DNA of 64,000 nt from Methanotrichaceae archaeon (GTDB taxonomy: Archaea; Halobacteriota; Methanosarcinia; Methanotrichales; Methanotrichaceae), in NCBI GenBank assembly GCA_963748825.1, contig CAVVKN010000012.1:95536-159535 (forward strand), in the 5' to 3' direction. Of the stretch, positions 12,372-32,801 are shown piece by piece; the stretch's first letter is position 1, and the number at the start of each line of letters is the position of its first letter. The position numbers and the translations under genes are program-made. Under the pieces are notes generated by a model. It was not told the origin of the DNA. It did no database searches and saw nothing but the letters and a program-made list of their open reading frames with translations.

Positions 12372-12571
12372 AATTAATCTATTATGTGCACTTGGACCTA
12401 GAAAAGCATTTTGGATAACGAGTATGCCTGCGATATCATTTTGCTTGTGGCACCAAAAGGCAGCATGGAAAACTGCCGGGTCCACATAACCAGCCGCTGG
12501 GCTATTGTCTCAGGGTGAAAGGAAGGCGCCTCGCTGATTTGCATGGCAATCGATTACGTCCCTGGGATCGG

Positions 12572-12608
12572 GTTGCAATTCTTGTTTTTTTGGAACTGGA
12601 AAAAATAT
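12572..12608 (-). repeat. Solitary degenerate CRISPR repeat outside the array
   Basis: 12572-12597 matches the first 26 nt of the repeat at 23/26 positions; the remainder is diverged. Confidence 0.6.
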
Positions 12609-12721
12609 CTATTTTATCGGCTTTTCTCCTCTTGCTTGCGCTTTTTGCCTTCGAGCCTCTTGTTTCTCTTTCTTTTTGTTCACCGTCGCCGTGCTCGGTG
12701 CATCCTTTTTAAATAAGTTGA

Positions 12722-13054
12722 TCATGATTGCTCCCTCGCATACCTCACGATTAATGTGATATCATAGGATCTGCTCATATTAATTTGTTCGCATACGAAA
12801 AAATGCTTAACGCTGTCTAGAAAAGCATCTAACTCCTTGGTTCCGGCAACTCGCGTTCCCTGACATCGTTTGTACTGCACCCAGGCTATATCTGCACCCT
12901 CCGGGAGGGCTCTGGTTTTCTTCTTTGTTTCTTCTCCCGCAGATGTAATAGTTTCCTTCACCGTGCCAGCCATTGGAGAGATAGGTGGTGAGCTTCGGAT
13001 AACTGGATTGGCGATAGTCTGAACGGCGGCGGGCTGTTCATTGTCGCGTTTCAA
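12722..13054 (-). CDS. Hypothetical protein downstream of the array trailer
   Basis: 110-aa ORF, no recognisable motif; annotated start lies inside the terminal repeat, so the true start may be internal (MAGTVKE). Confidence 0.3.
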   Translation of the reverse strand: MKRDNEQPAAVQTIANPVIRSSPPISPMAGTVKETITSAGEETKKKTRALPEGADIAWVQYKRCQGTRVAGTKELDAFLDSVKHFFVCEQINMSRSYDITLIVRYAREQS

Positions 13055-13199
13055 AACTTGTTCTTCATGGAAATGGCCATTGTACGTGGCCGACCAGGCG
13101 TTCCCGGTCGTACCTGTGGAGTTTCAATCCTTGTTTTCATGGAACTCGCCCTCGGACTCTGGTTCATCCTGGGCAATGCCCTTGCAGCCTTGGGGTTTC

Positions 13200-14664
13200 C
13201 CATGGAAAACCACACGAAACCAAAATCAGGAGGCGATCTATTCACCACCCCCAGATGGCCTTTTCTGGCCGACCTTGATCTCAGAAATGTCTGCGATCTC
13301 ACGCATGAGAGCATTCTTCCGGCTGCTCTCTTTCAGGTGATAAAAGGCATCCACAATTGCAGCGACCCGATCCGTTAAATGCTCTTCCTGAAATGAAGGT
13401 GCATGGCAGGGCTTATCCTGACTCGATCCCCTCTTTCTGCATTCACCTTCCAGATACAACTCCTGGTTGATCAGAAGATGATAAATGAGACAGATGAGTT
13501 TCCTGGCCACGGCAACAATCGCAACATTACGCTCCTTCTTTTTTATCAATCTCTGGAAGAATCTGGACAGCGCCGTCTTTTTCATATTTGATATGGTCTG
13601 CGCTGCTTGGACAAGTATAACTCTGATGTGCTTGGAACCCCTCTTTGTAATTCCACATTTTTTCTTCTTGCCTGCAGATTCGTTTTCTCCGGGATTGAGG
13701 CCACACCATTTTGCGAGCTGGTCCGGAGTCTTAAAATCACGGTAGTTCCCAATCTCCGACAGTATGACCGATGCAGATGTGAATCCAATTCCAGGGATCG
13801 ACATGACTATGGCCAGATCTTTGCTCTTTTGCTGAACTCCTTTCAGAACCTCAAGGCTTAGCTTCTCCATTTTGGATTCGAGATTGTCAAGGATTTCCAG
13901 AGCATCTATTAAGAGCATTCTGCTTGTATCGTTAAGACCATTTTCAAGTGCTGATCTAATCAGGTCTTGCTTCTTCCTTATCTTTCCGGAGGGTATGCCT
14001 TTCAAGATCTCTTCGATGGGCTTATTTTTAGCAAGACAGTTCAGGATGTATCTGCCGGACTTGCAGAAAATATCGTCCATGGTAGAACTGAGCTTAACCC
14101 CGCTTGATGATAGATATTTATGAATCCGATTCCTGAACTGAGTTCGTGTCTTGACATATCCGGACCTGGCTCGGGTCATCATCCTAAGGTCTCGGTCCTC
14201 ATCGGTAAATACGCGAGATCTTTTGATTTGACCGTTCAAGCAAAGGGTTGCGATTCGGTTTGAGTCTTTAGAGTCGGATTTGTCATTTGGAACGGTCTTT
14301 ATCTGCAACGGATTGGCTACAATTGTATCTATGGTTTTGCTCAGAGCATCATAAATCGGCATCCAATAGACACCAGTAGCTTCAAATGCCACTTGTTCGC
14401 ATTTGTTGGCAACCAGCCAGTTGCGGAATCTCTTAAGCTCGGCTTTTGTTGTCCCAAAATTCTCTCGAATTGTCGGTACATCATCGCCTGTTATTGTGGC
14501 AACGATCAGATCTTTATGGACATCTGCTCCGCAAACTCTATCTCTTCGTTTGTTCATACACGTCTCTGCCTGATATGGGCAGATGATCTTTCCCTGAGAT
14601 GGGATAATTTCCCATACGCGTTCCACGACGCAGTCCCGTATTCGGGGGGATCTTGGCCTGTTTC
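13200..14664 (-). mobile_element. IS110-family element copy 1; non-coding end truncated at internal GTTTC and fused to copy 2
   Basis: Starts CCATGGAAAACCAC right after spacer-GTTTC (13195-13199); matches copy 2 up to ggcctGTTTC (14660-14664) and lacks the last 130 bp. Confidence 0.93.
13238..14557 (-). CDS. IS110-family transposase/recombinase, 439 aa
   Basis: RuvC-like DEDD: GADVHKD, AFEATG, KSDSKDS; Tnp20 domain SIPGIG, GLNPGENESAG, AIVAVARKL; start at MNKRRD. Confidence 0.95.
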   Translation of the reverse strand: MNKRRDRVCGADVHKDLIVATITGDDVPTIRENFGTTKAELKRFRNWLVANKCEQVAFEATGVYWMPIYDALSKTIDTIVANPLQIKTVPNDKSDSKDSNRIATLCLNGQIKRSRVFTDEDRDLRMMTRARSGYVKTRTQFRNRIHKYLSSSGVKLSSTMDDIFCKSGRYILNCLAKNKPIEEILKGIPSGKIRKKQDLIRSALENGLNDTSRMLLIDALEILDNLESKMEKLSLEVLKGVQQKSKDLAIVMSIPGIGFTSASVILSEIGNYRDFKTPDQLAKWCGLNPGENESAGKKKKCGITKRGSKHIRVILVQAAQTISNMKKTALSRFFQRLIKKKERNVAIVAVARKLICLIYHLLINQELYLEGECRKRGSSQDKPCHAPSFQEEHLTDRVAAIVDAFYHLKESSRKNALMREIADISEIKVGQKRPSGGGE

Positions 14665-14702
14665 CCATGGAAAACCACACGAAACCAAAATCAGGAGGCG
14701 AT

Positions 14703-16022
14703 CTATTCACCACCCCCAGATGGCCTTTTCTGGCCGACCTTGATCTCAGAAATGTCTGCGATCTCACGCATGAGAGCATTCTTCCGGCTGCTCTCTTTCA
14801 GGTGATAAAAGGCATCCACAATTGCAGCGACCCGATCCGTTAAATGCTCTTCCTGAAATGAAGGTGCATGGCAGGGCTTATCCTGACTCGATCCCCTCTT
14901 TCTGCATTCACCTTCCAGATACAACTCCTGGTTGATCAGAAGATGATAAATGAGACAGATGAGTTTCCTGGCCACGGCAACAATCGCAACATTACGCTCC
15001 TTCTTTTTTATCAATCTCTGGAAGAATCTGGACAGCGCCGTCTTTTTCATATTTGATATGGTCTGCGCTGCTTGGACAAGTATAACTCTGATGTGCTTGG
15101 AACCCCTCTTTGTAATTCCACATTTTTTCTTCTTGCCTGCAGATTCGTTTTCTCCGGGATTGAGGCCACACCATTTTGCGAGCTGGTCCGGAGTCTTAAA
15201 ATCACGGTAGTTCCCAATCTCCGACAGTATGACCGATGCAGATGTGAATCCAATTCCAGGGATCGACATGACTATGGCCAGATCTTTGCTCTTTTGCTGA
15301 ACTCCTTTCAGAACCTCAAGGCTTAGCTTCTCCATTTTGGATTCGAGATTGTCAAGGATTTCCAGAGCATCTATTAAGAGCATTCTGCTTGTATCGTTAA
15401 GACCATTTTCAAGTGCTGATCTAATCAGGTCTTGCTTCTTCCTTATCTTTCCGGAGGGTATGCCTTTCAAGATCTCTTCGATGGGCTTATTTTTAGCAAG
15501 ACAGTTCAGGATGTATCTGCCGGACTTGCAGAAAATATCGTCCATGGTAGAACTGAGCTTAACCCCGCTTGATGATAGATATTTATGAATCCGATTCCTG
15601 AACTGAGTTCGTGTCTTGACATATCCGGACCTGGCTCGGGTCATCATCCTAAGGTCTCGGTCCTCATCGGTAAATACGCGAGATCTTTTGATTTGACCGT
15701 TCAAGCAAAGGGTTGCGATTCGGTTTGAGTCTTTAGAGTCGGATTTGTCATTTGGAACGGTCTTTATCTGCAACGGATTGGCTACAATTGTATCTATGGT
15801 TTTGCTCAGAGCATCATAAATCGGCATCCAATAGACACCAGTAGCTTCAAATGCCACTTGTTCGCATTTGTTGGCAACCAGCCAGTTGCGGAATCTCTTA
15901 AGCTCGGCTTTTGTTGTCCCAAAATTCTCTCGAATTGTCGGTACATCATCGCCTGTTATTGTGGCAACGATCAGATCTTTATGGACATCTGCTCCGCAAA
16001 CTCTATCTCTTCGTTTGTTCAT
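14703..16022 (-). CDS. IS110-family transposase/recombinase, 439 aa
   Basis: Same protein as copy 1 (LKRFRNW allele). Confidence 0.95.
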   Translation of the reverse strand: MNKRRDRVCGADVHKDLIVATITGDDVPTIRENFGTTKAELKRFRNWLVANKCEQVAFEATGVYWMPIYDALSKTIDTIVANPLQIKTVPNDKSDSKDSNRIATLCLNGQIKRSRVFTDEDRDLRMMTRARSGYVKTRTQFRNRIHKYLSSSGVKLSSTMDDIFCKSGRYILNCLAKNKPIEEILKGIPSGKIRKKQDLIRSALENGLNDTSRMLLIDALEILDNLESKMEKLSLEVLKGVQQKSKDLAIVMSIPGIGFTSASVILSEIGNYRDFKTPDQLAKWCGLNPGENESAGKKKKCGITKRGSKHIRVILVQAAQTISNMKKTALSRFFQRLIKKKERNVAIVAVARKLICLIYHLLINQELYLEGECRKRGSSQDKPCHAPSFQEEHLTDRVAAIVDAFYHLKESSRKNALMREIADISEIKVGQKRPSGGGE

Positions 16023-16254
16023 ACACGTCTCTGCCTGATATGGGCAGATGATCTTTCCCTGAGATGGGATAATTTCCCATACGCGTTCCACGACGCAGTC
16101 CCGTATTCGGGGGGATCTTGGCCTGTTTCAATCGCGGGATCAAACGTCCTATAAACTTGTCGGCCTTCACTGCCCATATCCGGCTTAACGTGAACGGATA
16201 ACAATATGTGGTTTTCCATCCGTCACGTGTGAGCCCCTGCCTGGGCTCATGGGC
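16023..16254 (-). ncRNA. Putative bridge RNA in the IS110 non-coding end (copy 2)
   Basis: Hairpins at 16230-16249 and 16188-16228; 11-bp stem 16170-16180/16037-16047 enclosing GATTGAAAC (repeat match, 16125-16133) and ATGGGAAA (donor match, 16073-16080); RNA boundaries unknown. Confidence 0.72.
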
Positions 16255-16961
16255 GTTTCAATCCTTGTTTTTGTGGAACTCGCCCTCGGACCTATATTAT
16301 AGTAATGACTACTATAAGTAAAAATCCGATGTTTCAATCCTTGTTTTTGTGGAACTCGCCCTCGGACCCATCTATGCCCAGGAATATATTCGATGTCTTT
16401 GAGTTTCAATCCTTGTTTTTGTGGAACTCGCCCTCGGACATTCCCACCTTCGAAATAGACCGAGCGTTTGAGATTGCGTTTCAATCCTTGTTTTTGTGGA
16501 ACTCGCCCTCGGACCGACATAATCACCAAGACCGCCCCAATTGACGGCCTGTTTCAATCCTTGTTTTTGTGGAACTCGCCCTCGGACATTGATTACTTGT
16601 TTCATGTTCATTACCTCCCTGCTAGTTTCAATCCTTGTTTTTGTGGAACTCGCCCTCGGACTCCAAGCGATTGCCTCTGGAGAAGTTAGATCGAATTGTT
16701 TCAATCCTTGTTTTTGTGGAACTCGCCCTCGGACCGCAACAGGTGACGACCTTTCCAGCAAAGTTGAAGCTGGTTTCAATCCTTGTTTTTGTGGAACTCG
16801 CCCTCGGACTGGGACACGGCGCTGGTTCTGATGCCGATCTCGTATAGTTTCAATCCTTGTTTTTGTGGAACTCGCCCTCGGACTATAATTTTGGATTCGT
16901 CATTCATGCATCCTCACGGTTTCCCATGGAAAACCACACGAAACCAAAATCAGGAGGCGAT

Positions 16962-18281
16962 CTATTCACCACCCCCAGATGGCCTTTTCTGGCCGACCTT
17001 GATCTCAGAAATGTCTGCGATCTCACGCATGAGAGCATTCTTCCGGCTGCTCTCTTTCAGGTGATAAAAGGCATCCACAATTGCAGCGACCCGATCCGTT
17101 AAATGCTCTTCCTGAAATGAAGGTGCATGGCAGGGCTTATCCTGACTCGATCCCCTCTTTCTGCATTCACCTTCCAGATACAACTCCTGGTTGATCAGAA
17201 GATGATAAATGAGACAGATGAGTTTCCTGGCCACGGCAACAATCGCAACATTACGCTCCTTCTTTTTTATCAATCTCTGGAAGAATCTGGACAGCGCCGT
17301 CTTTTTCATATTTGATATGGTCTGCGCTGCTTGGACAAGTATAACTCTGATGTGCTTGGAACCCCTCTTTGTAATTCCACATTTTTTCTTCTTGCCTGCA
17401 GATTCGTTTTCTCCGGGATTGAGGCCACACCATTTTGCGAGCTGGTCCGGAGTCTTAAAATCACGGTAGTTCCCAATCTCCGACAGTATGACCGATGCAG
17501 ATGTGAATCCAATTCCAGGGATCGACATGACTATGGCCAGATCTTTGCTCTTTTGCTGAACTCCTTTCAGAACCTCAAGGCTTAGCTTCTCCATTTTGGA
17601 TTCGAGATTGTCAAGGATTTCCAGAGCATCTATTAAGAGCATTCTGCTTGTATCGTTAAGACCATTTTCAAGTGCTGATCTAATCAGGTCTTGCTTCTTC
17701 CTTATCTTTCCGGAGGGTATGCCTTTCAAGATCTCTTCGATGGGCTTATTTTTAGCAAGACAGTTCAGGATGTATCTGCCGGACTTGCAGAAAATATCGT
17801 CCATGGTAGAACTGAGCTTAACCCCGCTTGATGATAGATATTTATGAATCCGATTCCTGAACTGAGTTCGTGTCTTGACATATCCGGACCTGGCTCGGGT
17901 CATCATCCTAAGGTCTCGGTCCTCATCGGTAAATACGCGAGATCTTTTGATTTGACCGTTCAAGCAAAGGGTTGCGATTCGGTTTGAGTCTTTAGAGTCG
18001 GATTTGTCATTTGGAACGGTCTTTATCTGCAACGGATTGGCTACAATTGTATCTATGGTTTTGCTCAGAGCATCATAAATCGGCATCCAATAGACACCAG
18101 TAGCTTCAAATGCCACTTGTTCGCATTTGTTGGCAACCAGCCAGTTGAGGAATCTCTTAAGCTCGGCTTTTGTTGTCCCAAAATTCTCTCGAATTGTCGG
18201 TACATCATCGCCTGTTATTGTGGCAACGATCAGATCTTTATGGACATCTGCTCCGCAAACTCTATCTCTTCGTTTGTTCAT
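16962..18281 (-). CDS. IS110-family transposase/recombinase, 439 aa
   Basis: As copies 1/2 except R>L substitution (LKRFLNW). Confidence 0.95.
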   Translation of the reverse strand: MNKRRDRVCGADVHKDLIVATITGDDVPTIRENFGTTKAELKRFLNWLVANKCEQVAFEATGVYWMPIYDALSKTIDTIVANPLQIKTVPNDKSDSKDSNRIATLCLNGQIKRSRVFTDEDRDLRMMTRARSGYVKTRTQFRNRIHKYLSSSGVKLSSTMDDIFCKSGRYILNCLAKNKPIEEILKGIPSGKIRKKQDLIRSALENGLNDTSRMLLIDALEILDNLESKMEKLSLEVLKGVQQKSKDLAIVMSIPGIGFTSASVILSEIGNYRDFKTPDQLAKWCGLNPGENESAGKKKKCGITKRGSKHIRVILVQAAQTISNMKKTALSRFFQRLIKKKERNVAIVAVARKLICLIYHLLINQELYLEGECRKRGSSQDKPCHAPSFQEEHLTDRVAAIVDAFYHLKESSRKNALMREIADISEIKVGQKRPSGGGE

Positions 18282-18513
18282 ACACGTCTCTGCCTGATAT
18301 GGGCAGATGATCTTTCCCTGAGATGGGATAATTTCCCATACGCGTTCCACGACGCAGTCCCGTATTCGGGGGGATCTTGGCCTGTTTCAATCGCGGGATC
18401 AAACGTCCTATAAACTTGTCGGCCTTCACTGCCCATATCCGGCTTAACGTGAACGGATAACAATATGTGGTTTTCCATCCGTCACGTGTGAGCCCCTGCC
18501 TGGGCTCATGGGC
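18282..18513 (-). ncRNA. Putative bridge RNA (copy 3)
   Basis: Same sequence as 16023-16254. Confidence 0.7.
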
Positions 18514-18702
18514 GTTTCAATCCTTGTTTTTGTGGAACTCGCCCTCGGACCACTGCCATCAAGTTCTAATGGGACCAATTCAATTTTGTTTCAATCCTTG
18601 TTTTTGTGGAACTCGCCCTCGGACATATTAGGTGATTTTCATGAAACTATGTATTATATGTTTCCCATGGAAAACCACACGAAACCAAAATCAGGAGGCG
18701 AT

Positions 18703-20022
18703 CTATTCACCACCCCCAGATGGCCTTTTCTGGCCGACCTTGATCTCAGAAATGTCTGCGATCTCACGCATGAGAGCATTCTTCCGGCTGCTCTCTTTCA
18801 GGTGATAAAAGGCATCCACAATTGCAGCGACCCGATCCGTTAAATGCTCTTCCTGAAATGAAGGTGCATGGCAGGGCTTATCCTGACTCGATCCCCTCTT
18901 TCTGCATTCACCTTCCAGATACAACTCCTGGTTGATCAGAAGATGATAAATGAGACAGATGAGTTTCCTGGCCACGGCAACAATCGCAACATTACGCTCC
19001 TTCTTTTTTATCAATCTCTGGAAGAATCTGGACAGCGCCGTCTTTTTCATATTTGATATGGTCTGCGCTGCTTGGACAAGTATAACTCTGATGTGCTTGG
19101 AACCCCTCTTTGTAATTCCACATTTTTTCTTCTTGCCTGCAGATTCGTTTTCTCCGGGATTGAGGCCACACCATTTTGCGAGCTGGTCCGGAGTCTTAAA
19201 ATCACGGTAGTTCCCAATCTCCGACAGTATGACCGATGCAGATGTGAATCCAATTCCAGGGATCGACATGACTATGGCCAGATCTTTGCTCTTTTGCTGA
19301 ACTCCTTTCAGAACCTCAAGGCTTAGCTTCTCCATTTTGGATTCGAGATTGTCAAGGATTTCCAGAGCATCTATTAAGAGCATTCTGCTTGTATCGTTAA
19401 GACCATTTTCAAGTGCTGATCTAATCAGGTCTTGCTTCTTCCTTATCTTTCCGGAGGGTATGCCTTTCAAGATCTCTTCGATGGGCTTATTTTTAGCAAG
19501 ACAGTTCAGGATGTATCTGCCGGACTTGCAGAAAATATCGTCCATGGTAGAACTGAGCTTAACCCCGCTTGATGATAGATATTTATGAATCCGATTCCTG
19601 AACTGAGTTCGTGTCTTGACATATCCGGACCTGGCTCGGGTCATCATCCTAAGGTCTCGGTCCTCATCGGTAAATACGCGAGATCTTTTGATTTGACCGT
19701 TCAAGCAAAGGGTTGCGATTCGGTTTGAGTCTTTAGAGTCGGATTTGTCATTTGGAACGGTCTTTATCTGCAACGGATTGGCTACAATTGTATCTATGGT
19801 TTTGCTCAGAGCATCATAAATCGGCATCCAATAGACACCAGTAGCTTCAAATGCCACTTGTTCGCATTTGTTGGCAACCAGCCAGTTGAGGAATCTCTTA
19901 AGCTCGGCTTTTGTTGTCCCAAAATTCTCTCGAATTGTCGGTACATCATCGCCTGTTATTGTGGCAACGATCAGATCTTTATGGACATCTGCTCCGCAAA
20001 CTCTATCTCTTCGTTTGTTCAT
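18703..20022 (-). CDS. IS110-family transposase/recombinase, 439 aa
   Basis: Same protein as copy 3 (LKRFLNW allele). Confidence 0.95.
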   Translation of the reverse strand: MNKRRDRVCGADVHKDLIVATITGDDVPTIRENFGTTKAELKRFLNWLVANKCEQVAFEATGVYWMPIYDALSKTIDTIVANPLQIKTVPNDKSDSKDSNRIATLCLNGQIKRSRVFTDEDRDLRMMTRARSGYVKTRTQFRNRIHKYLSSSGVKLSSTMDDIFCKSGRYILNCLAKNKPIEEILKGIPSGKIRKKQDLIRSALENGLNDTSRMLLIDALEILDNLESKMEKLSLEVLKGVQQKSKDLAIVMSIPGIGFTSASVILSEIGNYRDFKTPDQLAKWCGLNPGENESAGKKKKCGITKRGSKHIRVILVQAAQTISNMKKTALSRFFQRLIKKKERNVAIVAVARKLICLIYHLLINQELYLEGECRKRGSSQDKPCHAPSFQEEHLTDRVAAIVDAFYHLKESSRKNALMREIADISEIKVGQKRPSGGGE

Positions 20023-20254
20023 ACACGTCTCTGCCTGATATGGGCAGATGATCTTTCCCTGAGATGGGATAATTTCCCATACGCGTTCCACGACGCAGTC
20101 CCGTATTCGGGGGGATCTTGGCCTGTTTCAATCGCGGGATCAAACGTCCTATAAACTTGTCGGCCTTCACTGCCCATATCCGGCTTAACGTGAACGGATA
20201 ACAATATGTGGTTTTCCATCCGTCACGTGTGAGCCCCTGCCTGGGCTCATGGGC
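20023..20254 (-). ncRNA. Putative bridge RNA (copy 4)
   Basis: Same sequence as 16023-16254. Confidence 0.7.
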
Positions 20255-23200
20255 GTTTCAATCCTTGTTTTTGTGGAACTCGCCCTCGGACTTCTTATCC
20301 ATCCAAGAAGCTGCCCGCCAAGGCTCTGTTTCAATCCTTGTTTTTGTGGAACTCGCCCTCGGACAATCGCATAATGGCGGAAAACGCGGCAATCCTGGGT
20401 TTCAATCCTTGTTTTTGTGGAACTCGCCCTCGGACTCCTCAGTGCATTGCATCAGCTTCCAAGCCTTTCCAGTTTCAATCCTTGTTTTTGTGGAACTCGC
20501 CCTCGGACCCGCGATGCTAGCCAAGCTCTCTGATATGATTATCTGGGTTTCAATCCTTGTTTTTGTGGAACTCGCCCTCGGACTTTTGGACTAACTGCTC
20601 CGATAAATCTCCTATAGAAGTTTCAATCCTTGTTTTTGTGGAACTCGCCCTCGGACGGCGGGAAAGTCGGCTGCCGGCATGGGCGATTTTGATGTTTCAA
20701 TCCTTGTTTTTGTGGAACTCGCCCTCGGACCGGAGTAAGAGATTCGCGGTTATCAAATCCCAAACAGTTTCAATCCTTGTTTTTGTGGAACTCGCCCTCG
20801 GACTTGGGGTTGGTCATGGGGAATGCAGCTCTTGGGGGAGTTTCAATCCTTGTTTTTGTGGAACTCGCCCTCGGACAAGATAGATGAGGTTTGAGCATGA
20901 GAGGCACACTGCGTTTCAATCCTTGTTTTTGTGGAACTCGCCCTCGGACTGCGGTCTCAAACGCCAGGCCGAGCCTGGTTGATGTGTTTCAATCCTTGTT
21001 TTTGTGGAACTCGCCCTCGGACAACAAGAAGTAGCCGATGCAGTCAAAGTATATGCGGGTTTCAATCCTTGTTTTTGTGGAACTCGCCCTCGGACCCAAC
21101 CAGATTAGACCATTGGTGTCCATAATTTGCAGTTTCAATCCTTGTTTTTGTGGAACTCGCCCTCGGACATCTAGATGATGCAGATTACCAGAGCCGGATT
21201 TAACCAGTTTCAATCCTTGTTTTTGTGGAACTCGCCCTCGGACCTGTTTTGCAAGCCCGAAGATGGCGGCGCGGATGGAGTGGTTTCAATCCTTGTTTTT
21301 GTGGAACTCGCCCTCGGACGTACTTTTCTGTCCTGAAGATCGTGCGCATGCGATAGTTTCAATCCTTGTTTTTGTGGAACTCGCCCTCGGACCACAATTA
21401 TCCAGAACGGTGTCTCCTTCGTTGGTAGTTTCAATCCTTGTTTTTGTGGAACTCGCCCTCGGACAAAGATATGATGCTCAGATCAAAGACCTATTACATA
21501 GTTTCAATCCTTGTTTTTGTGGAACTCGCCCTCGGACTTGTCATATCTTCCAAGCATATTCCAACGTTCTTGATGTTTCAATCCTTGTTTTTGTGGAACT
21601 CGCCCTCGGACTACGAGCGGCACCGTTGGAGATACCTTCTATATATGTTTCAATCCTTGTTTTTGTGGAACTCGCCCTCGGACAGCAAAAAGGACTTGCA
21701 ACAAGCGGAACTATTAGAGTTTCAATCCTTGTTTTTGTGGAACTCGCCCTCGGACACTCCCGCAATCGCTTCACAAATTCCGGCCATTCTCAGAGTTTCA
21801 ATCCTTGTTTTTGTGGAACTCGCCCTCGGACTGTAGATGCTCAGATGGCATGATCTCATAGGTTGTGACAGTTTCAATCCTTGTTTTTGTGGAACTCGCC
21901 CTCGGACGCTGGAGCCTCGTATTGGCATCACACGAACTCATCGTTTCAATCCTTGTTTTTGTGGAACTCGCCCTCGGACTATCCGCAGTGCCATTTATGG
22001 CAGTCTCGTATCAGGGTTTCAATCCTTGTTTTTGTGGAACTCGCCCTCGGACTTCATGCCGAACCGCTATAGCCCATGAACATCCTAAGTTTCAATCCTT
22101 GTTTTTGTGGAACTCGCCCTCGGACAAGGAATCTTCCCGTGCATTCGCAGTGATTAGGATGTTTCAATCCTTGTTTTTGTGGAACTCGCCCTCGGACTGC
22201 GAACTGGTCAGAAGAAAGAAGAACATCGTTTGTGTTTCAATCCTTGTTTTTGTGGAACTCGCCCTCGGACGTTACTCTTACGGCATCCAGTCCCGGTATT
22301 TGGGGGTTTCAATCCTTGTTTTTGTGGAACTCGCCCTCGGACGGTCGAAACATCGGGGCTCCAAGATTGCAGAAGATGTTTCAATCCTTGTTTTTGTGGA
22401 ACTCGCCCTCGGACATTATATCGCAGCTTGATCCCTCAGCTAGAAGTAATGGTTTCAATCCTTGTTTTTGTGGAACTCGCCCTCGGACTAGCTATCTGGA
22501 TGAATTGAATCAGTACGTATCTGAGTTTCAATCCTTGTTTTTGTGGAACTCGCCCTCGGACACTCAGCACACACCCACACAGACGACGGGATAGATCGTT
22601 TCAATCCTTGTTTTTGTGGAACTCGCCCTCGGACACATAACCCTATTACCCGTGATCGGTTATAGTTGGCGTTTCAATCCTTGTTTTTGTGGAACTCGCC
22701 CTCGGACGCAATTTACCTCTCGCGTCCATCTTAGCATGGAACGGTTTCAATCCTTGTTTTTGTGGAACTCGCCCTCGGACGCTGATTGCGGCGCGTGGTT
22801 CATGATTAGGTGATCAGTTTCAATCCTTGTTTTTGTGGAACTCGCCCTCGGACTGTCATGCCATAGCATCTATGATCTGTCATCGAGTCAGGTTTCAATC
22901 CTTGTTTTTGTGGAACTCGCCCTCGGACGCTGGCATGAGTTCTCGATGGCATGGGGGTAGGTAAGTTTCAATCCTTGTTTTTGTGGAACTCGCCCTCGGA
23001 CCTATCAGAAGGGGCCGGGTGGTTGGGGATACTGGCAGTTTCAATCCTTGTTTTTGTGGAACTCGCCCTCGGACTCTGTTTTCAGATATGCCTTATTGGT
23101 ACATTCGTTAGTTTCAATCCTTGTTTTTGTGGAACTCGCCCTCGGACGTGAGACACAGTCGATGCAACTGTATCTTGAGACAAACTGTTTCAATCCTTGT

Positions 23201-23370
23201 TTTTGTGGAACTCGCCCTCGGACCTTGGAATAAGCAGAGATCGAACGATTGATGGAGGAAGTTTCAATCCTTGTTTTTGTGGAACTCGCCCTCGGACAGC
23301 ATTTGCGGAAAAGACAGGCAACAGAAATATCTGGTTTCAATCCTTGTTTTTGTGGAACTCGCCCTCGGAC

Positions 23371-23529
23371 AGCGGCTTTTTTTCGTCCTTTTCCCCGTTT
23401 CTCAGTGTCAAACCGGCCTTTTCTCACCCTCCTCAAAGCATTAGAGGAATTTATTAGATGGCTTATAAATTCATTCCGGCAGGTGGGCCCGAAAATAGGC
23501 TCGCTGGCCCAAAAACGGATGGCGCATCT
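23371..23529 (-). promoter_or_regulatory. CRISPR leader
   Basis: Non-coding region between the cas6 stop and the first repeat; A/G-rich on the minus strand with TATA-like ATTTATAA at ~23463-23470. Confidence 0.75.
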
Positions 23530-24186
23530 CTATTTCAGTTTTGTAACCGCCCCGTAACCTCTGGAGACTGACTTGCCCAGCCCCAGGAAGTCCGGGATGG
23601 CAAAGGTTGTGGTGAACTCTCCTCGTATCCCCGTGACTTTTGTCCCCTTCAGCAGGCAGATCTCATCCTGCATCCCGCCCACCTCCAGCCGAATGTGCTC
23701 TTTGGCCACGTAGCCCAGCCCCTTGGAGGCGGAGAGGATGTTGCCCACCAGGATTCTTCTCAGCAGATCCTTTCTTTCCTCTCTGTTTGCATTTAAATAT
23801 TTGGGGTAGTTGTCCTGGCTAAGTGCCAGCCAGGGCGTGGCAAAACTGTAGCTTTGGATCTTTTCGCAGCATCCGAACTCCTCGCTCTTCAGGGTAATGC
23901 CGCGCTCCATGATGCTGTACTTGCTCTCTCCCAATTTTATCTCATCGAATTTATCATAGATCTCTTTCAGGACCTCTGCCCCCTCGTTGATGCCAAGGAC
24001 CAGGGGACTTCCCTCCAGCATCTTGTACTGGATGAGAGGATATTTGTAGATCAGCTTGTCCGTCACATGCTGGTGCAGCAGCGCATGCTCATTGAAGCTG
24101 GTGGCAAAGAAGCCGCGCAGCTTCGATGCGTCCCCGTGCATGGGCGCGTCCGAGTGCAGGGTGAGGCGGAGGATTTTGAGGATCAT
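23530..24186 (-). CDS. cas6: CRISPR endoribonuclease Cas6 (Cas6b-like)
   Basis: KLRGFF...LLHQH...YKYPLIQYK and C-terminal G-rich loop GLGKSVSRGYG. Confidence 0.92.
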   Translation of the reverse strand: MILKILRLTLHSDAPMHGDASKLRGFFATSFNEHALLHQHVTDKLIYKYPLIQYKMLEGSPLVLGINEGAEVLKEIYDKFDEIKLGESKYSIMERGITLKSEEFGCCEKIQSYSFATPWLALSQDNYPKYLNANREERKDLLRRILVGNILSASKGLGYVAKEHIRLEVGGMQDEICLLKGTKVTGIRGEFTTTFAIPDFLGLGKSVSRGYGAVTKLK

Positions 24187-30755: not shown

Positions 30756-31409
30756 TCAAACGCATATATTCCTGTACGTGCAGTCCACGCACCTGGCCTT
30801 CTGCTTCGTCCCATCGGGAAAGTATCCCCTCTGAATTATCATCAGTATCTCGCGCACAATCTCCTTCGCCTTCTCATAATCTTTTTGCTGAAAGTCTATT
30901 TCCGCCACATAATTGTTGCTCCTGGTGTAGCAGACAAAGCCCCGCTTCACATCCACGCCGAAGTGCTCCATGATGAGCAGCCCGTAAAGTGCCGCCTGAA
31001 ACTTGTGCGTCCTGTAAATGGTGTTTTTAAACTCGGCATACTTGTAATCCAGAGGTGCAGCCGTTCCATCTTCCAGAAAGAGAACCTCATCCACCTCTCC
31101 CTTGAAGTGGTACTTGTGCGAAGTCAGATAAACCGAGATCTCTTTTCCCGTGCAATTCAGCTTCTTTCTCACGTAATCCCGGTTCACCTTCTCCCGGATC
31201 TCGTGCAGCTCTCTGCCCTTCAAAACCTTGAAGCGCCGCTCCTCTCTCTGGGCGATGCCCAGGCAGTGCATGAAAAATATGAACCTGGGGCAGAACAGGT
31301 ACTCCAGCGCATCGGATACCGTGACGAAAATCTCCTGCGCGGGTGCGGGCTCTCGCGCGCCCTCCTGCGCCTGCCCGCGCGTGGCCGCTGTATCATCATC
31401 TGTCTCCAT
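30756..31409 (-). CDS. cas4: Cas4 exonuclease
   Basis: YLFCPR, GEVDEV...PLDYKY, C-terminal CVDCTYRNIC Fe-S cysteines. Confidence 0.92.
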   Translation of the reverse strand: METDDDTAATRGQAQEGAREPAPAQEIFVTVSDALEYLFCPRFIFFMHCLGIAQREERRFKVLKGRELHEIREKVNRDYVRKKLNCTGKEISVYLTSHKYHFKGEVDEVLFLEDGTAAPLDYKYAEFKNTIYRTHKFQAALYGLLIMEHFGVDVKRGFVCYTRSNNYVAEIDFQQKDYEKAKEIVREILMIIQRGYFPDGTKQKARCVDCTYRNICV

Positions 31410-31654
31410 TTTGCCCTCAGAACACCTTGGTTAACATCATGCCCGCCACCAGTTCTCGGTCGAATCCCGTTCCGATCAGCTTGATCTTATCAAAGCAGTC
31501 CTCGCACATGGGAAAGACGTAGACTGAATCAGACTCCTCGATGACCGCCTCGCACTCCAGGGCCAGGGAGTCGGACTGATTCCGGTTCAGATCGCCCAGA
31601 AAGGCGCTCTTCTGCACCCGGAACAGGCCGTATCTCTTACAGAGCTTCGCTACC
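31265..31654 (-). repeat. Diverged ~390-bp direct repeat, copy A (cas2 3' part + cas4 5' part)
   Basis: Aligns with 32350-32739 at offset 1085 with scattered substitutions. Confidence 0.9.
31417..31654 (-). pseudogene. cas2: 5'-truncated cas2 duplicate
   Basis: [18 protein letters not shown]...MLTKVF but lacks the N-terminal VIYDIS strand. Confidence 0.85.

Positions 31655-32349: not shown

Positions 32350-32801
<452 letters not shown>

Follow-up and report, generated by a model that had tools for sequence, protein, structure and literature searches.

A putative bridge-RNA gene in an archaeal IS110/IS1111-family element inserted in CRISPR repeats

What brings four almost identical copies of one insertion sequence (IS) into a single CRISPR array? 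The question is raised by contig CAVVKN010000012.1 of a Methanotrichaceae archaeon (assembly GCA_963748825.1), of which a stretch of 64,000 nucleotides (nt; positions 95,536 to 159,535) was analysed; it is called the window here, and all coordinates refer to it. An earlier note on this DNA had singled out the segment 16023–16254 as a non-coding end resembling a bridge-RNA gene. Because the ATG of the transposase gene lies at 16022, these 232 nt of the minus strand are exactly the non-coding left end of one IS copy, comprising the presumed bridge (or seek) RNA gene together with inverted repeats at the DNA level. Judged from the sequence, the segment is very probably the left end of an element of the IS110/IS1111 family which encodes a bridge (seek) RNA steering insertion into CRISPR repeats. 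The bridge- or seek-RNA mechanism of IS110 and IS1111 elements is already known, and the NCBI family model names the protein an RNA-guided transposase; the CRISPR-repeat target and some of the details, in an archaeal element of the IS110/IS1111 kind, appear to be new. No RNA-guided IS aimed at CRISPR repeats was found in the literature searched, a scope outside which lie the supplements that perhaps list predicted ISfinder targets.

Read along the minus strand, the left end begins with a hairpin of 7 base pairs (bp) at 16230–16249 (TGAGCCCAGGCAGGGGCTCA) and a bulged 11-bp hairpin at 16188–16228 (ACGTGACGGATGG...CCGTTCACGT), followed by a perfect 11-bp stem in which GATATGGGCAG (16170–16180) pairs with CTGCCCATATC (16037–16047). 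All three had been described before, from a fold made by eye, and RNAfold returned the same architecture (−84.4 kcal/mol, z −3.50, 0 of 200 shuffles as stable). Both 5' hairpins listed in the earlier note are present, but they overlap the inverted repeats of the DNA and may not belong to the transcript. The conserved RNA scaffold (16037–16180, minus strand) consists of the 11-bp closing stem and, enclosed by it, a target-binding loop and a donor-binding loop. The target-binding loop (16117–16165, minus strand) has an outer stem GGCC/GGCC and an inner hairpin (16137–16149). Its 5' strand, GACAAGUUU (16153–16161, minus strand), is the reverse complement of the AA core and the right flank and would pair with the top strand, and its 3' strand, GAUUGAAAC (16125–16133, minus strand), has the same sense as the left flank, the AA core and the AC after it and would pair with the bottom strand. 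The donor-binding loop (16050–16117, minus strand) combines an outer stem, (GAUC)CCC/GGG(AAAGAUC), with an inner stem-loop, UGCGUC..GAACGCG (16082–16097), and carries the putative donor guide AUGGGAA(A) (16073–16080, minus strand), which runs in the sense of the right-end terminus CATGGG plus the AA core. The two identities on which the proposal of a guide RNA was built are exact: GATTGAAAC at 16125–16133 is the final 9 nt of the repeat read in the sense of the CRISPR RNA (crRNA), and ATGGGAAA at 16073–16080 is identical to the right-end terminus CCATGGGAAAC. The proposed GATC/GATC closure of the second domain exists here and in close relatives, but wider relatives keep only the adjacent CCC/GGG (85.8% paired). 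The chance that some 9-mer within 232 nt equals the 9 nt abutting the element is estimated at about 1e-3; that the match goes beyond chance follows from the covariation tests below, since they settle the point independently.

Relatives for these tests came from a protein search in 392 genomes of the same class, in which homologues at E ≤ 1e-60 were found in 87 genomes and 16 of 49 genera. The 91 loci (numbered with the prefix L) gave 77 distinct upstream regions. The start of the left end was set by pattern in 55 of these and the right-end terminus in 41; left out were the 22 left ends and 36 right ends, each of 77, without a pattern match or reaching beyond the contig end. Also dropped were L009, L003, L007, L052, L074 and L080 (in some tests L066 as well), which had no RNA, were truncated or had a mis-set boundary. 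The scaffold, ..GATATGGGCAGTGAAGGC..TAGCC..TGCGTC..GAACGCG.ATG.GAA..CTGCCCATATC, can be made out in relatives whose protein identity is as low as 34%. Over 44 distinct scaffolds, 89.2% of the pair cells hold standard pairs, compared with 20–46% when the partners are slid, and changes on both sides occur in 18 of 31 pairs versus 6.8 in shuffles (0/500). The closing stem is 99.2% paired in these 44 sequences, and both partners have changed in 6 of the 11 pairs. In the target loop the outer stem is 91.5% and the inner stem 97.7% paired, and compensatory changes occur in both. The inner stem-loop of the donor loop is 100% paired in the set A2, and more distant relatives show GUGAC/GAUCAC and GUACC/GAGUAC at this place. 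The donor loop as a whole is best closed by the outer UCCC/GGGA (85.8% paired). Other pairings tried in the donor region were discarded: pairing is conserved poorly in the hairpins CCCG/CGGG (65.9%) and UCCC/GGGA (61.9%), and GGGA(5')/UCCC is paired to 48.3% only.

The segments exposed in the two loops vary together with the DNA. In an initial alignment of 24 left ends, the 3' strand of loop 1 took three states, each identical to its own left flank (GAUUGAAAC/ATTGAAAC, CCCUAAAC/CCCTAAAC and GGCUAAAAC/GGCTAAAAC). Permutation tests with one representative per guide compared the longest common run of cognate and non-cognate pairs. For the 3' strand and the left flank, where covariation on homologous ends had been proposed as a check, the guide segment tracks the insertion site: 33 distinct guides gave a run of 7.35 with the cognate and 4.57 with non-cognate flanks, a difference reached in 0 of 5000 permutations. 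Restricted to the six variable nt, 30 guides gave 3.94 versus 1.60 matches (0/10000). The 5' strand, compared with the reverse complement of AA plus right flank, reached 5.95 versus 3.52 (25 guides, 0/5000), and the loop-2 segment, AUGGGAA in the present element, reached 7.89 versus 4.44 with the right-end terminus (14 guides, 0/5000). Examples of target guides are L028, with CUGCGGAAAC equal to its flank CTGCGGAAAC, and L027 (UUUAUAAAAC). The 5' strand of L005 reads GGCAAGUUU next to a flank AAACTTGC, and those of L024 (GCACGGAUUU), L027 (UGAUAUUUU), L059 (CCGUUGCUU) and L046 (CAUCCUUU) are the reverse complements of their own flanks. Variants of the loop-2 segment include ATGGGAA, ATGCGAA, ATAGGAA, ATAGAAAA, ATGTGAA, ATGGCAA and ATACGAA, among others. 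In most of the listed elements the 3' guide has AC as the two bases past the core; these correspond to the first two bases of the left end and not to the target bases (TG in L034 and L035), an arrangement that resembles the handshake guides of IS621. Like the sequence relationships, the position of the crossover and the family of the recombinase, this covariation is a direct observation. With the loop-1 strands covarying with the flanks, the AUGGGAA of loop 2 with the right end, and compensatory changes in the stems, the sequences bear out the earlier suggestion of a guide RNA that would explain the insertion specificity. The further suggestion of a reprogrammable recombinase holds as far as natural 'reprogramming' is concerned, the clade containing at least 30 guide variants with matching sites; for other changes of the guide it would apply by analogy.

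Every full copy reads, in element orientation, ..AAGGATTG-AA-AC|GCCCATGAG...TTTTCCATGG-G-AA-AC|spacer, and the crossover point within it is fixed by relatives with imperfect sites. The left and right sequences are CAAAC and GAAAC in L005, GAAAC and GAAAT in L010 and L040, and ..GG-AA-AC.. and ..CATAGG-AA-TG.. in L034 and L035. Because only AA is common to both partners, AA acts as the core dinucleotide. The insertion lies 2 nt before the end of the repeat, and a complete repeat is regenerated ahead of the left end. A perfect subterminal inverted repeat of 13 nt is formed by a left copy (ATGGAAAACCACA, 16207–16219, minus strand), which starts 38 nt inside the left end, and its exact inverted counterpart on the right (TGTGGTTTTCCAT, 14667–14679, minus strand), located 3 nt from the AA core. 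The left extension of about 37 nt holds the palindrome at 16230–16249; on the right, the extension consists of GGG (+AA). The left copy of the inverted repeat is followed by CATATTG, which may, as a guess, be an archaeal BRE/TATA placing the start near 16180.

Which sites are used is seen best in the group of relatives at 78–100% identity. There, 11 of the 19 insertions with an intact left end are in CRISPR repeats of three families, all of them ending in ATTGAAAC, and the other eight are in single sites which end in (A)TTGAAAC or are one mismatch away. In the present genome, repeats of the array account for 55 of the 81 GATTGAAAC sites. The putative guide fits those bases of the repeat that are most conserved, and therefore a single guide would open arrays of at least three repeat families, which makes CRISPR arrays nurseries for an RNA-guided IS of this type. 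In contigs of environmental runs, unrelated sequence takes over from the element after GTTTCAAT. Two further loci of the same genome are situated outside any array, a full copy with 93% identity (L005, G000:C5:28195-29787) and a left-end fragment of 312 nt (L006, G000:C23:222045-222357); their sites, ATTCAAAC and ATTAAAAC, are each one mismatch from the guide. At L013 (G366:C5, element at 1269–2862), 18 repeats ending in ..CCCGATAGGGATTGAAAC lie to the left and repeats of another family, ending in ..GTTCCACGAAAACAAGGATTGAAAC, to the right in the same orientation, which may mean that the IS brought two arrays together, or merely that two arrays are neighbours. In the sequencing runs X15–X17 and X1 (window 16919–18522), metagenome and metatranscriptome contigs from freshwater sediment, wetland and soil carry the element at 90–100% identity with several different flanks, and related elements are therefore widespread in those habitats.

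The recombinase itself is encoded on the minus strand at 14703–16022 (439 amino acids, start codon 16022–16020) and affiliates with the IS110-family DEDD, RNA-guided transposases. It matches the Pfam families PF01548 (1.3e-21) and PF02371 (5.3e-26), scores 257.9 bits with the NCBIfam model NF033542 'IS110 family RNA-guided transposase' (cut-off 140) and retrieves the IS621 transposase (8wt6) from the PDB with an E value of 5.5e-08. In the alignment with 8wt6, the segment ..NPGENESAG.. of the query faces ..TPRRYESGS.., and we infer that its serine is the catalytic Ser of the Tnp domain. Only 43 nt (14660–14702) remain after the stop codon; the long non-coding region is upstream of the gene.

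Taken together, these features suggest the following course of events. From the minus strand, between about 16180 and 16037, an RNA of roughly 150 nt would be made in which the 11-bp stem encloses two internal loops, one for the target and one for the donor. The target guides would select ..ATTG-AA-AC.., a sequence conserved at the 3' end of CRISPR repeats, which we take to be the region of the crRNA 5' handle. The element would then be set 2 nt before the end of the repeat, always in the sense of the crRNA precursor (pre-crRNA), with the DEDD/Ser recombinase swapping strands at the shared AA core. That such an RNA is produced, that the protein binds it and that it directs recombination is inferred from the analogous IS621, ISEc11 and ISEc21; for relatives, an RNA-guided mechanism is established (PMC11208160, PMC11208158, PMC11187229).

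Several observations weigh against this proposal. The left end matches no Rfam family at E ≤ 1 (12500–24000 searched, with CRISPR-DR7 as the sole match). Contigs from RNA libraries do cover the scaffold (e.g. X15, 286 nt, 18166–18451, no differences), but they may stem from DNA or from read-through, and all 24 listed sequencing runs are represented by Logan contigs, which cannot show transcript ends. A circle-junction joint was absent from the contigs of four runs, which neither shows nor excludes a circular form. The boundaries were set by patterns (A[AC]A[CG]....ATG and TT..CAT..AA) that share constant bases with the guides, and the permutation tests overstate independence because related elements are kin, although the guide states are nevertheless many. 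In the target loop the complement of the top strand is 5' and the match to the bottom strand 3', the reverse of the order LTG-5'/RTG-3' described for IS621 (PMC11208160, PMC11208158). Lastly, neither a k-mer search nor mutual information revealed an RNA segment complementary to the donor half at the left end (AA-ACGCCCATG). Runs of at least 6 nt complementary or at least 7 nt of the same sense, sought between the RNA and its own left end, included no consistent complement to AA-AC-NNNN-ATG, and in the mutual information between left-end positions 3–14 and all RNA columns clade markers dominate.

The 5' strand of the donor loop, AAUACGGGAC (16098–16107, minus strand), is a same-sense copy of an internal segment of the left end, CACACGTGACGG (16220–16231), which sits between the palindrome and the inner inverted repeat. 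Strand and segment covary (20 variants, 5.78 versus 4.44, 0/3000 permutations), for instance as ATGCAAGAA, ATGCATGAA, CATACATGGA and ATGCCCAAA, which points to a rule of donor recognition not described for IS621. Both strands of the donor loop have the sense of the top strand and therefore would pair with one and the same DNA strand. A more far-reaching reading, in which the donor loop reads one strand of a single-stranded, hairpin-folded donor and the element is a CRISPR-array specialist expressed from the leader and released by Cas6b, is unlikely as a whole. It would fit that the donor-loop strands, unlike those of IS621, match the right end plus AA and the segment abutting the inner inverted repeat, flanking the hairpin of the conserved palindrome. 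In two preprints, single-strand or copy-out intermediates are reported for IS110 elements, and their relevance here is speculation. Two other candidates for a left-end guide, the AUGGGC of the long stem (complement of GCCCAT) and the motif GAGGGUUU (complement of AAACCCTC in L030 and L031), showed no covariation with the left end and were rejected.

One of the closest known systems is IS621 (Durrant 2024, PMC11208160; Hiraizumi 2024, PMC11208158). As described there, it shares with the present element a recombinase composed of DEDD and Tnp domains, a left end that holds the non-coding RNA gene, placed upstream of the recombinase gene, a target loop ahead of the donor loop, each an internal loop with an inner stem-loop, and guides for the staggered top and bottom strands which include the common core dinucleotide. 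In both, one guide continues past the core with 2 nt that fit the other DNA partner in a handshake-like manner. The core of IS621 is CT, whereas that of the present element is AA. The target loop of IS621 is built of a stem, the LTG (nt 50–58, bottom strand), a stem-loop and the RTG (nt 77–80, top strand) (PMC11208160, PMC11208158); the order of loops assumed in the earlier note, target before donor, is found here as well, but the order of strands within the target loop is that of the IS1111 seekRNAs. Where IS621 has a 5' stem-loop, an 11-bp stem surrounds both loops in the present element. Also unlike IS621 are the 13-bp subterminal inverted repeat with its left copy 38 nt inside the end, the failure of k-mer search and mutual information to find an RDG-like guide, and the archaeal host with a CRISPR repeat as target.

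IS1111-family seekRNAs (ISEc11, ISPa11 and ISKpn4; Siddiquee 2024, PMC11187229) carry the complement of the top strand first and the match to the bottom strand second, as does the target loop described here. According to the same source, elements of this family have subterminal inverted repeats of 11–13 bp with extensions of 7 bp on the left and 3 bp on the right, and a non-coding region that is normally downstream of the gene, with exceptions such as ISMtsp17. The 13-bp inverted repeat of our element falls within that range, its right extension is similarly short (GGG + AA, compared with 3 bp), and a true target duplication is absent in both. In contrast to IS1111, the non-coding region precedes the transposase gene and the left extension measures about 37 nt with a palindrome instead of 7 nt. 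Since traits of IS110 and IS1111 are mixed, the element is a hybrid of the two described layouts, a statement on layout only and not on a transposase tree. Such a mixed architecture helps to relate both groups and to mine for new programmable recombinases, and the dozens of guide variants with their insertion sites form a data set of natural origin, with internal controls, for an RNA-guided recombinase of methanogens.

Other mobile elements have been connected with CRISPR repeats. In IS1000A/B, an IS110-family element of Thermus thermophilus, the annotated end and CRISPR repeats are identical, implying that it inserts in repeats; this element is bacterial, and PMC6352166 proposes no RNA guide for it. 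The Tn7-like elements of PMC11837452 are likewise minimal, free of cargo and mostly found in CRISPR arrays (18 of 22 in that account), occasionally elsewhere, but according to that account they are targeted by a TnsD-like protein, not by RNA, and use another transposition chemistry. In Sulfolobus, the CRISPR-repeat-binding protein Cbp1 is described as binding the IS110-family element ISC1229.

The four IS copies, all on the minus strand, interrupt the array near its leader-distal end and are 99.9–100% identical to each other. Copy B covers the full repeat unit of 1595 bp (14660–16254), and by crossover mapping its mobile unit is 14664–16256 plus one AA core (TT on the plus strand at 14662–14663 or 16257–16258). 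Copies C (16919–18513) and D (18660–20254) differ from B by one nt each, at 18148 and 19889, respectively, and copy A (13195–14659) equals B without the first 125–130 nt of the left end (B query 126–1595). The right end of B is joined to A at an AA core inside A's guide-coding DNA (..CCATGGG-AA-ACAGGCC.., junction 14655–14668), and at this site the guide-coding DNA of A reads GATTG-AA-ACAGGCC, a mimic of the target. This junction is the outcome expected if the guide-coding DNA of A, as the mimic, served as target. Such a course would need a later collapse of a 130-bp tandem repeat; alternatively, there would need to have been an earlier tandem whose junction recombined with the mimic. In this sense, the A/B junction would show in nature how a bridge-RNA gene is attacked at the DNA that encodes its own guide. 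Four near-identical 1.6-kb repeats crowded into 7 kb of a 25-contig draft genome might also suggest that the tandem and truncated copies and their clustering in the array are artefacts of assembly and the 'self-targeting' junction is unreal. We regard this as quite improbable, given a clean junction between right end and target located exactly at the AA core of the mimic, unique spacers of its own on both sides of each full copy, and a comparable left-end deletion at AA in a second IS110-family element of the same genome; moreover, the objection concerns the side observation on A and B alone, not the guide RNA.

That second element is 47% identical at the protein level and occurs at L007 (region G000:C18:142021-142145) and L008 (G000:C5). 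The L007 copy is without about 175 nt of its left end, the left flank TTAGTGAAAC being joined to the donor-loop sequence GCGAATGCG, and the deletion likewise stops at an AA-C site.

A different role would be played by the RNA if it acted mainly on the CRISPR-Cas system, with GAUUGAAAC mimicking the 5' handle of crRNAs in a decoy or regulator transcribed from the leader and cut by Cas6b. In favour of such a function, the guide is the same as the terminal 9 nt of the repeat, every copy runs in the direction of the pre-crRNA, and directly upstream of each left end a full repeat is restored. The last two features argue little for it because guide-directed insertion yields both automatically. Relatives with the same scaffold have unrelated guides and non-CRISPR targets, and 8 of the 19 close copies are outside arrays, so that a decoy is highly improbable as the main function. 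Least tenable of all is a left end that is merely a promoter or 5' untranslated region with protein-binding repeats, the transposase alone picking ATTGAAAC and the 9-nt and 8-nt identities being chance or footprints: single short matches are all that is seen within this one element, the two 5' hairpins coincide with inverted repeats of the DNA and the RNA is known here by prediction, but three segments track flanks and right end over 14–33 states with no permutation reaching the observed values, they sit in internal loops of a scaffold with compensatory stems, and the family is experimentally RNA-guided (as reported in PMC11208160 and PMC11187229). The bridge (seek) RNA is accordingly the reading retained for the left end.

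The array that houses the element extends from 13121 to 23370 on the minus strand with a 37-nt repeat (55 repeat matches versus 0 expected). In crRNA sense the repeat is GTCCGAGGGCGAGTTCCACAAAAACAAGGATTGAAAC, with the 3' end ..AAGGATTGAAAC, and a degenerate terminal repeat is located at 13121. On the minus strand the Rfam model CRISPR-DR7 attains 36 bits, compared with a gathering score of 37. A leader (23371–23529, minus strand) adjoins the array upstream in crRNA sense, and a Cas6b gene (23530–24186, minus strand; PF17955 and PF17262) is next to it. From the placement of the Cas6b gene and the leader, the array is transcribed from the minus strand, in the same sense as all IS copies. The host genome encodes McrA (930.9 bits, above the cut-off) and its small-subunit ribosomal RNA scores 1568 bits with the archaeal model; since the McrA family was matched among the controls only in two methanogen genomes, the host is a methanogenic archaeon. 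Upstream of the array, again in crRNA sense, follows a type I-B set of cas3, cas5, cas7, cas8b, cas4 and cas1. Inside this cas cluster, between cas4 and cas1, a 300-nt direct repeat with 94% identity is present at 31265–31564 and 32350–32649.

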